A stretch of DNA of 64,000 nucleotides, taken from positions 635,769-699,768 of the forward strand of contig OY282457.1 in assembly GCA_958296235.1 (NCBI GenBank), written 5' to 3'. Numbering within the stretch: position 1 is the stretch's first letter; every line of letters starts with the position of its first letter. Positions 29,014 through 32,928 of the stretch are shown here, in pieces. The position numbers were made by a program, and so were the translations under genes. This DNA comes from an uncultured Candidatus Binatia bacterium (GTDB taxonomy: Bacteria; Desulfobacterota; Binatia; Bin18). Below the pieces are notes generated by a model, which was given only the letters and a program-made list of their open reading frames with translations, searched no databases and was not told where the DNA came from.

Positions 29014-32000
29014 TCATAAGCTGAAATCGAACTTCTGCACCCCCCGCGACTGGACTGCATGTCCATCTTCCAAGCGTGGCTGGAATTTCCACTGGACAAT
29101 GGCATCCAGGGCCGCTCTGTCGAATACGCCGGGCGGGTCGGATGTGACCACCTCGGGACTGGTCACGCTCCCCTCCTGCGTGACGATGAACCTGACCGTG
29201 ACTGAGCCTTCGAGCTTACGACGCAGGGCCAGCCCGGGATACTGGGGCGGAACCCGTACCAGGGGTTGCAAATCGGCTACGCTGACGGTTCTGACGGCCT
29301 GCACAGCGTAAGGCAGTGTCCGGGCAATACGCAGCCCGACATAATCGTACCGATAGGCAGCGTCATAGCCGTTGCGGCTGGCGGACCGGACGACTTTCGG
29401 CGAGAATATCCAGGACCCCCCGCGCGACACACGCCGCCGGCAATCCTCTGGAGTCCACGCCTGCCCGTCCAACGGTGTCGCAGCGTAATTCTCAGCCCAG
29501 CAGTCCTGCACCCATTCCCCGACATTGCCGTGCATATCGTACAAGCCGAACGCGTTCGGCCTGAAACTCCCCACCGGTATCGTTCGCCGGCGGTCCGTCC
29601 CGGTCGGCTCCTCGCCGTAACTGTATGTTGCGTCGAAGTTCGCCTCCGCATCGCTGATTGTTTCTCCCAAGTGAAACGGCGTCCGCGTATGTGCCCGCGC
29701 CGCATACTCCCACTCTGTCTCGCTCAGTAACCGGTACGACCGGCCCGACACGTTCGTTAACCAGCGTACATACGCCTGTGCGTCCGCCCAAGTCACGTTG
29801 ATGACCGGCTGCCGCCCGCGCCCCCAGCCGGCATCGTCGGGACGATATCCATTGCACCCCCCCGCACTCACACACGCATCCCATTCCGCAAAGGTCACTT
29901 CGTACACCCCGACCGCTAACGCCCGGGGAATCTCCACCATACTCAGCGGTCCTTCGTCCTCACTCCGCCCTGCCTCAACGGACGTCGAGCCCCGCAGAAA
30001 GGAACTCGACGGGACGACCACGACCTCTGGACAGGCCGAACAGTCCCGGAAACGTTCGCCCGCCGGCCGCTCCCGCTCCGCCCGGACCAGGGCTATCCGC
30101 TGTTCCGTCGCCGCCCACCCGTGCTGGATGGTCGCCCGCGAGGTCTCGTACCCCGCCGCGCTCACTTCCACTTCGTATGCCCCGGCTGCTAACGCCATCC
30201 CCGCTTCATAGGGCTCCTCCAGGTTCGCGATCTGTACCTGCGCCCCCGCCGGCTCCGTGACCACCGTAAAAGGTTGCGGACCAATCTCCACCAGGGCTAT
30301 CCGCTGCTCGGTTGCCGTCCACCCGTGCTGGATAGTTGCCCGCGAGGTCTCATACCCCGCCGCGCTCACTTCCACTTCGTATGCCCCGGCTGCTAACGCC
30401 ATCCCCGCTTCATAGGGCTCCTCCAGGTTCGCGATCCGCACCTGCGCGCCCGCCGGCTCCGTGACCACCGTAAAAGGTTGCGGACCGATCTCCACCAGGG
30501 CTATCCGCCGTTCCGTCGCCTCCCGCCCGTGCTGGATGGTCTCTCTGACCGTCGCATACCCCGCCGCGCTCACTTCTACTTCGTACTCGCCCGGCCCTAA
30601 TGCCATCCCCGCTTGATACCGCTCCTCTATATTCACAATCCGTACCCGCGCCCCCGTCGGCTCCGTGACCACCGTAAAAGGTTGCGGACCGATCTCCACC
30701 AGGGCTATCCGCCGTTCCGTCGCCTCCCGCCCGTGCTGGATGGTCTCTCTGACCGTCGCATACCCCGCCGCGCTCACTTCTACTTCGTACTCGCCCGGCC
30801 CTAATGCCATCCCCGCTTGATACCGCTCCTCTATATTCACAATTCGCACCCGCGCGCCCGCCGGCTCCGTAACCACCGTAAAGGGCTGCGGGCCGATCTC
30901 CACCAGGGCTATCCGTCGTTCCGTCGCCGCCGCCCCATGCTGGATGGTCTCTCTGACCGTCGCATACCCCGCCGCACTCACTTCTACTTCGTACTCGCCC
31001 GGCCCTAACGCCATCCCCGCTTCATAGGGCTCTTCAATGTTCACAATCCGTACCCGCGCCCCTGCCGGCTCCGCCCTGACGGTGAACGGCTGCCGCTCTG
31101 GCTCTACCCGGGACAGGGCTATCCGCCGCTCGGTTGCCGCCGCCCCGTGCTGGATGGTCTCCCGCACCGTCGCATACCCCGCCGCGCTCACTTCCACTTC
31201 GTACTCACCCGGCTCTAACGCCATCCCCGCTTCATAGGGCTCCTCCAGGTTCACAATCCGTACCTGCGCCCCCGCCGGCTCCGCCCTGACGGTGAACGGC
31301 TGCCGCTCTGGCTCCACCCGGGACAGGACTATCCGCCGCTCGGTTGCCTCCCGCCCATGCTGGATGGTCTCTCTGACCGTCGCATACCCCGCCGCGCTCA
31401 CTTCCACTTCGTACTCGCCCGGCCCTAACGCCATTCCCGCTTCATAGGGCTCCTCAATGTTCACAATCCGTACCTGCGCCCCCGCCGGCTCCGCCATAAC
31501 GGTGAACGGCTGCCACTCTGGCTCTACCCGGGCAGTCAGCGACCGGGCAACGCGGAAACCGATGTCGTAGGCCCGCCTGTCAGTGAGGTATACGTCGCGG
31601 TTGGCAGAGCGCAGTGTCCCCGGCGCATAGTACCACGAGCCGCCACGCACGAACCGCTGACCGCAATCTCCGGTTGTCCGCGCCTGCCCGTCGCTCGGCG
31701 CGCCAATATAGGTATCGTTCCGGCAGTCCTGCACCCATTCGCCTACGTTGCCGTGCACGTCATACAGCCCGAACGCATTTGACTCAAAACTCCCCACAGG
31801 GATGGTTTGCCCGCGGTAGGGCCCTACTCTGCCGCGACCGTAGATGTATTTCCCATCATAGTTCGCTTGCGTGGTCGATATCGTAGCCCCGGTGTGAAAG
31901 GGGGTGCGCGTCCCGGCCCGGGCCACATACTCCCACTCTGCTTCGCTCAATAACCGGTACGACCAGCCGGTCTCCTCCGTCAACCAATCCACATACGCCT

Positions 32001-32928
32001 GCGCGTCCTCCCAACTCACGTTTATCACTGGCCGCCGGCCCCGATTCCAGCCCTCATCCCTCGGCTGGTATCCCTGACAACCCCCACCGGCCACACAGGC
32101 GTCCCATTCGGCAAAAGTCACTTCGTACACGCCCACGGCAAACGGCTCCGCTATTGTTACTTCGCGCTGCGGCCCTTCCGCGTCGCTCCGGCCCTCTTCG
32201 GTGACCGGCGCCCCCATCAGAAACGACCCGGCCGGCACCTCTATTATCTCCGGGCACGCTGAACAGTCCCGGAATGGCGTGTTCCCCGTCCGTTGGACAG
32301 CGACGGGTTCGCTCACCATGACCGGTTCGTTCCCCATCCGTTGAGCAGCACTGCGCAGGAGGGGCAGGGCGTCCGTCAATGGGATGGACGAGGATAGGCC
32401 GGTGTCGCGCAAAAAATCCTGTAAGGCTTGCCCGGTACGCTCGCCCCACATACCGTCTGCCGGGCCGGGCCGGTAGCCCAATGCGGCCAGCAAGCTCTGG
32501 GCCTCGCGGATCGCCTCGGACGGCATCCCGGTCTGGTCAGCAGGAATCAGTACAGAGCCGGCCCCGCTCGGTTGCCACTCCAGGGCCAGCCTCTGGGCCT
32601 CGGCGCGCTCTTGCGGACTCAACCGGGCGGCCAGCGCATCACGCTCGGCAACGGCTGCAAACTCGCCCCGGCTGGCGGCCAGATTGAACCACTTATGCGC
32701 CTCGACATAATTCTGCGGCACGCCCAAGCCCTGGAGATACACCCGCCCCAGGGCCAGCATGGACCTGGCCTCGCCAGCCTCCGCGCTCGTCTGCCACTCG
32801 GCTATGGCCACATTGCGCAGGCCGGCATCCCAAGCGCGTTGCCCAGCCTCGTAATCCGCCCCCGCCGGTGCAGCGATCATCAGCGTCAGTGCCAGCGCCC
32901 CTATCTTGAATTTGCTCTTCCATGCCAC
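29014..32928 (-). CDS. Giant envelope protein: signal peptide - Sel1 repeat - peptidoglycan-binding domain - FGE/SUMF1 domain - 7 tandem PEGA domains - second FGE/SUMF1 domain - TonB C-terminal domain
   Basis: Sel1 GRVYLQGLGVPQNYVEAHKWF. PG_binding_1 LLAALGYRPGPADGMWGERTGQALQDF. Two FGE blocks (FRDCSACPE...RGGSW). PEGA units with EPAGAQVRI...GMALGPGEYEV. C-terminal TonB_C LVRVPPQYP... Confidence 0.8.
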   Translation of the reverse strand: MAWKSKFKIGALALTLMIAAPAGADYEAGQRAWDAGLRNVAIAEWQTSAEAGEARSMLALGRVYLQGLGVPQNYVEAHKWFNLAASRGEFAAVAERDALAARLSPQERAEAQRLALEWQPSGAGSVLIPADQTGMPSEAIREAQSLLAALGYRPGPADGMWGERTGQALQDFLRDTGLSSSIPLTDALPLLRSAAQRMGNEPVMVSEPVAVQRTGNTPFRDCSACPEIIEVPAGSFLMGAPVTEEGRSDAEGPQREVTIAEPFAVGVYEVTFAEWDACVAGGGCQGYQPRDEGWNRGRRPVINVSWEDAQAYVDWLTEETGWSYRLLSEAEWEYVARAGTRTPFHTGATISTTQANYDGKYIYGRGRVGPYRGQTIPVGSFESNAFGLYDVHGNVGEWVQDCRNDTYIGAPSDGQARTTGDCGQRFVRGGSWYYAPGTLRSANRDVYLTDRRAYDIGFRVARSLTARVEPEWQPFTVMAEPAGAQVRIVNIEEPYEAGMALGPGEYEVEVSAAGYATVRETIQHGREATERRIVLSRVEPERQPFTVRAEPAGAQVRIVNLEEPYEAGMALEPGEYEVEVSAAGYATVRETIQHGAAATERRIALSRVEPERQPFTVRAEPAGARVRIVNIEEPYEAGMALGPGEYEVEVSAAGYATVRETIQHGAAATERRIALVEIGPQPFTVVTEPAGARVRIVNIEERYQAGMALGPGEYEVEVSAAGYATVRETIQHGREATERRIALVEIGPQPFTVVTEPTGARVRIVNIEERYQAGMALGPGEYEVEVSAAGYATVRETIQHGREATERRIALVEIGPQPFTVVTEPAGAQVRIANLEEPYEAGMALAAGAYEVEVSAAGYETSRATIQHGWTATEQRIALVEIGPQPFTVVTEPAGAQVQIANLEEPYEAGMALAAGAYEVEVSAAGYETSRATIQHGWAATEQRIALVRAERERPAGERFRDCSACPEVVVVPSSSFLRGSTSVEAGRSEDEGPLSMVEIPRALAVGVYEVTFAEWDACVSAGGCNGYRPDDAGWGRGRQPVINVTWADAQAYVRWLTNVSGRSYRLLSETEWEYAARAHTRTPFHLGETISDAEANFDATYSYGEEPTGTDRRRTIPVGSFRPNAFGLYDMHGNVGEWVQDCWAENYAATPLDGQAWTPEDCRRRVSRGGSWIFSPKVVRSASRNGYDAAYRYDYVGLRIARTLPYAVQAVRTVSVADLQPLVRVPPQYPGLALRRKLEGSVTVRFIVTQEGSVTSPEVVTSDPPGVFDRAALDAIVQWKFQPRLEDGHAVQSRGVQKFDFSL
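30080..31510. repeat. Seven near-identical ~204-bp tandem coding repeats (PEGA-domain units) inside the giant gene
   Basis: Protein units VEPE(W/R)QPFTV..EPAGAQVRIVN.EEPYEAGMAL.PGEYEVEVSAAGYATVRETIQHG... repeated 7 times. Plus-strand ORFs at 30613, 30817, 31037 are shadows. Confidence 0.8.

Follow-up and report, generated by a model that had tools for sequence, protein, structure and literature searches.

Domains of the formylglycine-generating enzyme (FGE) fold are very common in bacteria, and almost none has an assigned role. The closest characterized relative of the domains described here is PvdO, a protein required in vivo for the final oxidation step on the pyoverdine chromophore (dihydropyoverdine); when purified, it has neither a detectable cofactor nor in vitro activity (PMC6206403, a review). 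Elsewhere the fold is found in Tsi3, an FGE-like immunity protein of type VI secretion systems (T6SS) that acts by binding (10.1101/2021.05.21.445229), in FGS/C-type-lectin-fold domains with proposed sensor or neutralising roles in conflict systems (PMC7159879), and in FGS C-type-lectin-fold domains that are targets of diversity-generating retroelements (DGRs; 10.1101/2023.09.22.558884). Here we describe a gene within a 64,000-nucleotide stretch (the window) of contig OY282457.1 from an uncultured Candidatus Binatia bacterium, whose 1304-residue product carries two PvdO-like FGE-fold domains on either side of an array of seven PEGA repeats. We tentatively favour, with rather less than even confidence, the reading that it is a TonB-like tether in the periplasm, anchored to peptidoglycan, which displays ligand-binding PvdO-like domains close to an outer-membrane partner.

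The protein is encoded by a single open reading frame (ORF), and its GTG start is supported because orthologs begin MAWRSEI at the homologous position and a GGAGG site lies 9 nt upstream. The gene and the predicted features of its product are as follows.

29014..32928, minus strand: whole gene, 1304 codons plus stop, GTG start; an identical protein is present in a public collection.
32937..32943, minus strand: ribosome-binding site AGGAGGG, 9 nt ahead of the GTG start.
32857..32928, minus strand: Sec-type signal peptide, aa 1-24, read from the sequence as KSKFK, then IGALALTLMIAA, then PAGA, with DY after the cleavage point.
32578..32853, minus strand: helical solenoid of Sel1-like repeats, modelled with six helices, aa 26-117 (the Pfam Sel1 match covers aa 55-88; AlphaFold2 and Foldseek).
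32329..32532, minus strand: PG_binding_1 peptidoglycan-binding domain, aa 133-200 (Pfam and AlphaFold2).
31537..32292, minus strand: FGE-fold domain 1 (PvdO-like), aa 213-464 (Pfam, 174 bits; N-terminal CSAC motif).
30064..31524, minus strand: array of seven PEGA beta-sandwich repeats, aa 469-955 (Pfam, repeat finding and models).
29311..30063, minus strand: FGE-fold domain 2 (PvdO-like), aa 956-1206 (Pfam, 178.6 bits over aa 966-1203), a lineage-specific extra copy.
29017..29250, minus strand: TonB C-terminal domain (TonB_C), aa 1227-1304 (Pfam, 79 bits against a cut-off of 24.6).

An earlier, sequence-only reading of this DNA had allowed that the gene might have been mis-assembled from its repeats. 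This is ruled out because ten members of its 90% identity cluster, on separate and independent contigs of 36 kb to 9.2 Mb, encode the same 1304-aa version, each with 10-25 substitutions relative to the window protein; another member, 1234 aa long, is shorter by precisely one 70-aa repeat. At a near-identical locus (L002) the gene is present in an unchanged context. The gene encodes a real secreted envelope protein.

Pfam scans of the whole protein and of excised pieces, with bit scores compared to gathering cut-offs, bear out the list and order of domains given in the sequence-only reading (Sel1, peptidoglycan-binding, two FGE domains bracketing seven PEGA domains, and TonB C-terminal), including PEGA and TonB_C, whose failure in profile searches would have refuted that reading and both of which pass. 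The signal peptide has a hydrophobic core of 12 residues followed by AGA and, across the cleavage point, D; it appears to be of the cleavable type and has no lipobox cysteine. No 19-aa hydrophobic window occurs anywhere in the 1304-aa protein, which therefore has no segment of transmembrane length. Sel1 scores 37.7 bits against a cut-off of 30.7, and Foldseek matches this region to the Sel1-repeat proteins 6ORK and 6UR7. The Pfam match to PG_binding_1 spans aa 137-178 (33 bits against a cut-off of 23), and the domain is modelled as three helices with a predicted local distance difference test (pLDDT) of 72-78. An AlphaFold2 model of aa 816-1304 has a mean pLDDT of 85 and contains PEGA, FGE and TonB_C folds. 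The model of aa 1-680 has a mean pLDDT of 68, with values of ~30 over aa 1-23 and below 50 at aa 340-456, the C-terminal half of FGE domain 1, from which nothing is drawn.

The nearest solved structures to TonB_C are the C-terminal domain of TonB2 (2K9K, E 9e-16) and Pseudomonas aeruginosa TonB (6FIP, E 5.7e-15), so that this is a genuine TonB_C domain of the kind carried by energy-transducing TonB proteins. It is nonetheless extremely improbable that the protein is an energy-transducing TonB paralogue, having only a cleavable-type signal peptide where TonB has an N-terminal transmembrane anchor for ExbB/ExbD. Moreover, a scan of the window's larger ORFs (roughly 40) as neighbours showed no TonB-dependent receptor, exbBD, sulfatase, pvd, T6SS or MauG-like gene.

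The best solved match of both FGE-fold domains is PvdO (5HHA), in sequence and in fold alike. The sequence match (E 9.5e-51) covers the whole domain including its CxxC motif, compared with ~1e-14 for true FGEs, and in Foldseek comparisons the template modelling score is 0.82 for PvdO and 0.63-0.69 for true FGE structures. The strong matches of both domains to Pfam FGE-sulfatase (PF03781) are what a true formylglycine-generating enzyme that activates sulfatases would give. In true FGEs, however, the copper-binding catalytic pair of cysteines, C336 and C341 in the human enzyme, lies 3 and 8 residues past a GGS motif near the C-terminus, in a segment 100% identical to PDB 1Y1E; after the equivalent motif in the window domains, RGGSWYYAPGTLRS and RGGSWIFSPKVVRS, there is no cysteine to the end of either domain. 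CSACPE had earlier been taken for the conserved FGE pair, an assignment that must be withdrawn: it is a CxxC motif at the extreme N-terminus of the domain, common to PvdO, where its counterpart is FKDCKDCPEMV, and the catalytic pair is missing from both domains. Because no cysteine follows the motif, we conclude from these alignments that the window domains are PvdO-like FGE-fold domains and cannot be formylglycine-generating enzymes. With no sulfatase gene among the scanned ORFs either, a sulfatase-activating role is almost certainly wrong, and annotators should not name such domains formylglycine-generating enzymes.

The same domains are, by these comparisons, not PvdO orthologs, since the NCBIfam PvdO model (NF051459), although their best NCBIfam match, falls short of its equivalog cut-off of 500 with 414 bits summed over both, and in the FGE domain tree PvdO is placed on a long branch as a distant outgroup. 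A glutamate is reportedly essential for PvdO function; the Glu of its WGEPP motif, which may or may not be the residue in question, aligns with a Tyr in FGE domain 1. Other assignments were tried and rejected. The type IX secretion proteins PorK/GldK give 155 bits against an equivalog cut-off of 350, and the window signal peptide lacks the lipobox Cys. For a C-type-lectin/FGS target diversified by a DGR there is no template repeat, the only repeats of FGE-coding DNA in the window being the two domains themselves at 70-76% identity, and no reverse transcriptase was found among the scanned larger ORFs.

The C-terminal part of the protein is shared with proteins of quite different N-termini. A query made of the last two PEGA units and TonB_C of an ortholog found other proteins closed by the same PEGA(n)-TonB_C tail, with 41-45% identity over 210-240 residues. 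Among them are Ser/Thr kinases (P0274, P0280 and P0358), whose single transmembrane segment follows the kinase domain, and T2SSG pseudopilin-like proteins (P0268 and P0292), whose transmembrane segment is N-terminal; a caspase-domain protein (P0360) also ends in TonB_C, with no PEGA match at the threshold used. The tailed kinases and pseudopilin-like proteins share the layout of TonB, that of a membrane anchor, a spacer and TonB_C, and this layout is our main reason for reading the PEGA array as a spacer in the periplasm, with TonB_C the docking end. The tailed proteins look like an undescribed class of TonB-like connectors, and PEGA(n)-TonB_C as a portable periplasmic tail suggests a wider class of TonB-like outer-membrane connectors that depart from the usual use of ExbBD.

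The remaining junctions also recur elsewhere. The Sel1-PG_binding leader is found at 54-58% identity ahead of ankyrin repeats and several FGE-fold domains in other proteins, and alone in many proteins of 200-330 aa, one of them labelled as from a Gammaproteobacteria metagenome-assembled genome; the leader search listed short proteins only, and so shows that the leader exists alone and is no census of architectures. In transmembrane Ser/Thr kinases and in one caspase-domain protein (P0046) the same PEGA subtype adjoins a PvdO-like FGE-fold domain; in P0046, PEGA runs directly into the F-R-D-C-x-x-C-P-E start of the FGE-fold domain. The sequence-only reading did not recognise this fusion, and the exact combination is indeed rare, its family having three representatives (P0001, P0006 and P0259) among 1.84 billion 50%-identity clusters; each of its junctions is found in other proteins, and the fusion is a rare reshuffling of known, recurring modules. 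Literature searches found no paper describing it in the library covered. A contig scan with the whole protein, with patterns specific to this allele, recovered no family member and only FGE-domain proteins fused to kinase, caspase, TIR and other domains.

Taken together, these features suggest how the protein may work. After Sec export and cleavage of the signal peptide it would be a soluble periplasmic protein, like TonB minus its membrane anchor. The Sel1 and PG_binding_1 head would hold peptidoglycan non-covalently, and the seven PEGA domains would form a beads-on-a-string stalk in place of the proline-rich rod of TonB, with repeat number setting its length. TonB_C would dock by beta-strand augmentation on a TonB-box-like strand of an outer-membrane protein. 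The two PvdO-like (C-type-lectin-like) domains would be the cargo, one beside the wall anchor and the other immediately beneath the docking domain, and would bind a ligand (a small molecule, peptide or glycan) instead of making formylglycine. The tether is supported by domains that pass Pfam cut-offs, by the bona fide kinship of TonB_C, by a signal peptide without a transmembrane segment, by PEGA units that are all-beta, resemble stalk arrays and change quickly in number, and by a Sel1-PG_binding leader that can stand by itself, and ligand binding by the missing FGE catalytic cysteines and the existence of documented binders among FGE-fold domains. The cell-wall-anchored scaffold proposed in the sequence-only reading is thus kept in the reading we favour, and is strengthened by the occurrence of the PEGA-TonB_C tail on inner-membrane-anchored proteins; its attachment to peptidoglycan is inferred, as are outer-membrane docking and a ligand for the PvdO-like domains.

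Several points weigh against this tether, in which binding to peptidoglycan and to an outer-membrane protein is putative. Neither a TonB-dependent receptor nor exbBD was found among the scanned larger ORFs. By a rough estimate, seven PEGA domains at ~3-4 nm each exceed the gap between wall and outer membrane, and because of this the geometry may not be that of a simple wall-to-outer-membrane bridge. Furthermore, since PvdO, the nearest characterized relative of the cargo, is genetically required for an oxidation (PMC6206403), the cargo may have a catalytic role. In a variant to which we give little credence, the protein would do passively, without energy input, what TonB does, being fixed to peptidoglycan and not to the inner membrane; it would dock the TonB box of a specific outer-membrane receptor and keep a PvdO-like domain right below, where that domain would capture or oxidise the imported substrate (e.g. 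a siderophore-like one) on its emergence, or else it would block TonB boxes against parasites that exploit them. The second PvdO-like domain, beside TonB_C, would then be the substrate-facing module, and if this were true the protein would represent a novel type of periplasmic processing scaffold coupled to a receptor.

The kinship with PvdO, both as the best solved match and as the best NCBIfam model, also speaks for the main alternative, a possible though unlikely one, namely that the protein is a periplasmic PvdO-like oxidoreductase. Its FGE-fold domains would catalyse or help the oxidation of a small molecule or protein residue in the periplasm, a partner such as a MauG/MbnH-like dihaem enzyme would handle electrons, and the other domains would serve only for positioning. 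The requirement for PvdO in dihydropyoverdine oxidation agrees with this, as does strong purifying selection on FGE domain 1, for which dN/dS between the window and L002 is 0.05. The gene order at four orthologs with a single FGE-fold domain points the same way: downstream of each come a TPR protein of ~240 aa, a dihaem enzyme of the CCP_MauG type and a histidine kinase with a DAHL domain, in a block at 10923-14696 in L001 and at equivalent positions in L016, L017 and L018. In NCBIfam the dihaem enzyme is best matched, in each case below cut-off, by the MbnH family and by MauG. At three of the four loci (L001, L016 and L018) Tad pilus genes (Flp pilin and secretin) come next, and the upstream flanks differ among the loci. 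The genomes are close relatives, however, with orthologs 81-88% identical, and so the shared gene order is weak evidence of linkage; we regard the block with the dihaem enzyme as a lead and not as proof. The window copy itself lacks such neighbours, as a tblastn search of the window with the TPR, MauG-like, kinase and Tad genes from the ortholog loci gave nothing and no pvd genes were seen in the scanned ORFs. The sub-threshold score of the PvdO model, the outgroup position of PvdO and the inactivity of the purified protein, which has no detectable cofactor (PMC6206403), likewise speak against an oxidoreductase.

Across its family the protein has a core layout of signal peptide, Sel1, PG_binding_1, one FGE-fold domain, PEGA(n) with n of 2, 3, 4 or 6, a PPQPPPPS linker and TonB_C. 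The N-terminal cores of family members are 81-93% identical to each other and 66-68% identical to that of the window protein. Only the window lineage has another FGE-fold domain, placed after the PEGA array and ahead of TonB_C; the ancestral family carries one such domain and not two. Domain 2 is 62% identical to domain 1 in a gap-free alignment and 59-62% identical to the domain of the orthologs, compared with 68-70% between domain 1 and the orthologs. In a neighbour-joining tree domain 2 lies beside a clade of domain 1 and the orthologs (bootstrap 63%), and domain 1 groups with the orthologs to the exclusion of domain 2 (bootstrap 88%). Given these identities and its position in the tree, domain 2 is most simply an old or fast-evolving internal duplicate and not a foreign domain. 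Its dN/dS between the window and L002 is 0.58, from just 7 non-synonymous and 4 synonymous changes, and on these few substitutions it appears less constrained than domain 1.

The seven PEGA units are 70, 70, 68, 68, 68, 68 and about 72 aa long in order. The whole-protein PEGA score is 86 bits, and the four of the seven 68-70 aa repeats that were scanned singly each came just above the PEGA (PF08308) cut-off of 20.8, at 21.3-24.9 bits. Tandem Repeats Finder reports a 204-bp period with 6.8 copies at 30086-31493. Identity among the units is 72-99% at the protein level and 75-96% at the DNA level, with the highest values within the adjacent pairs 4/5 and 6/7; repeats in one and the same protein are often nearly identical, which suggests ongoing homogenisation between copies. 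In the AlphaFold2 models the PEGA units are all-beta with six strands each (pLDDT about 80-93), and a three-repeat segment matches tandem Ig-like or stalk arrays, namely B. anthracis TIE (6FWV), tandem Rib (6S5Y) and the carboxypeptidase D regulatory domain (1QMU). Family members, including the window lineage, have 2, 3, 4, 6 or 7 PEGA repeats, and two proteins with 100% identical N-terminal cores (P0013 and P0007) have 4 and 6; repeat number changes quickly. A 243-aa ORF elsewhere in the window (5973-6704, plus strand) encodes a CarboxypepD_reg-like beta-sandwich of the same broad fold class as PEGA, with no link drawn to the gene described here.

Variation is unevenly distributed along the protein. 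Among the ten alleles, 1.2-2.4% of sites are variable in the N-terminal half and 6.8-11.2% in the half comprising PEGA, domain 2 and TonB_C, a 3-5 fold difference. Such variability, together with the polymorphic PEGA number and the dN/dS of domain 2, could reflect a periplasmic defence or immunity binder, a wall-fixed decoy that captures toxins, colicin-like proteins or phage parts and possibly occupies TonB boxes. FGE-fold T6SS immunity proteins do act by binding, neutralising and sensor domains have been proposed in conflict systems, and near relatives of the window domain are fused to caspases, TIR domains and kinases. We nevertheless consider such a decoy quite unlikely. The dN/dS value is below 1 and relaxed constraint explains the few changes behind it equally well; the protein matches none of the PADLOC model families (0); and the scanned ORFs include no T6SS, NTPase, effector or reverse-transcriptase gene, with no DGR template repeat in the window.

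Upstream of the gene, 172 bp away on the same strand, is a hydantoinase A gene, and at its downstream end the gene faces, in convergent orientation, an unannotated ORF and a cluster for 5-oxoprolinase (pxpBC-like), as it does in L002. No sigma-70-like promoter or terminator was called on the gene's strand. Two perfect copies of a direct repeat lie just ahead of the coding region.

32943..32969, minus strand: 27-nt direct repeat CGTATGCAAATGTACAAATCTGATTCA, proximal copy, just upstream of the ribosome-binding site.
33014..33040, minus strand: 27-nt direct repeat CGTATGCAAATGTACAAATCTGATTCA, distal copy, 71 nt upstream of the proximal copy.

With 0 such pairs expected by chance, and the pair kept in L002 and missing upstream of the single-FGE orthologs, the repeats may be a candidate operator or a duplicated promoter element.

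An 83-bp perfect direct repeat (26338-26420 and 27389-27471) duplicates the 5' end of the pxpC-like (CT_A_B) gene and delimits a 1051-bp insert (26421-27388 between the repeats) with a HipA_N-like ORF (26946-27377) that matches the PADLOC candidate family PDC-M03B. In L002 pxpB and pxpC are adjacent and there is no insert; the arrangement in the window has the look of a recent insertion that left a long target duplication. A 324-aa ORF (35217-36191, minus strand), with a weak DUF5655 match and no NCBIfam or PADLOC match, separates the genes for hydantoinase B and A; the two hydantoinase genes of L002 are 112 bp apart with no called gene between them. Farther away, a Type ISP restriction-modification enzyme (58526-61666, minus strand; N6_Mtase plus Type_ISP_C, 289 bits) lies in a stretch at 56-62 kb that is probably a horizontally acquired island, with a G+C fraction of 0.53-0.56 compared with about 0.60 elsewhere. 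An intergenic element of ~100 nt is present at 8246-8348 and 48010-48092, copies 40 kb apart and 86-98% identical, and a separate 102-nt pair (7372-7473 and 10062-10163) is 92% identical. Genes at 10192-13617 and 14003-18774 (both minus strand) include one for an 1141-aa protein beside benzoate-CoA ligase, boxB and boxC of the aerobic benzoyl-CoA pathway; this protein resembles a TOMM system kinase/cyclase fusion (453 bits, below the cut-off of 706).

Compared with described proteins, the window domains are closest to PvdO, which is likewise a periplasmic FGE-fold domain without the FGE cysteines and has the same F-x-D-C-x-x-C-P-E motif and NAFGxYDMHGNVxEW core, the two being 39-43% identical in structure-based alignments. 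PvdO differs in being a stand-alone protein of about 285 aa encoded in a pvdMNO operon, whereas the window domain occurs twice within a 1304-aa scaffold. Tsi3 is similar in that its FGE-fold domain lacks the catalytic residues of FGE, PvdO and EgtB and acts by binding, but its genes lie beside vgrG and tse3, neither of which is seen at the window gene, and it forms its own clade (10.1101/2021.05.21.445229). The Sel1-PG_binding-Ank-FGE(n) proteins (P0014, P0015, P0044, P0049, P0063 and P0064) share the signal peptide, Sel1 and PG_binding_1, followed by PvdO-like FGE-fold domains; they differ in having ankyrin repeats between leader and FGE and no PEGA or TonB_C listed. The tailed kinases and T2SSG proteins, in contrast, have inner-membrane-anchored heads and no Sel1, PG_binding or FGE. 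Tandem Rib and Ig-like stalk arrays (6S5Y and 6FWV) are also strings of small beta-sandwich domains with variable copy number, although they belong to Gram-positive surface proteins and another domain family, and their resemblance to the PEGA array is structural only.

In the tether we favour, the PvdO-like domain would be framed by a wall anchor and, at the opposite end, a TonB-type docking domain, which narrows where it would act and makes its partner directly searchable. Like TonB, the protein has a full TonB_C domain with an extended spacer ahead of it. It differs in that the membrane anchor is replaced by a signal peptide and peptidoglycan-binding head, and the proline-rich rod by seven PEGA repeats and the second FGE-fold domain, with the orthologs keeping a short PPQPPPPS linker; because anchor and rod are both replaced, no energy coupling through ExbBD is expected.

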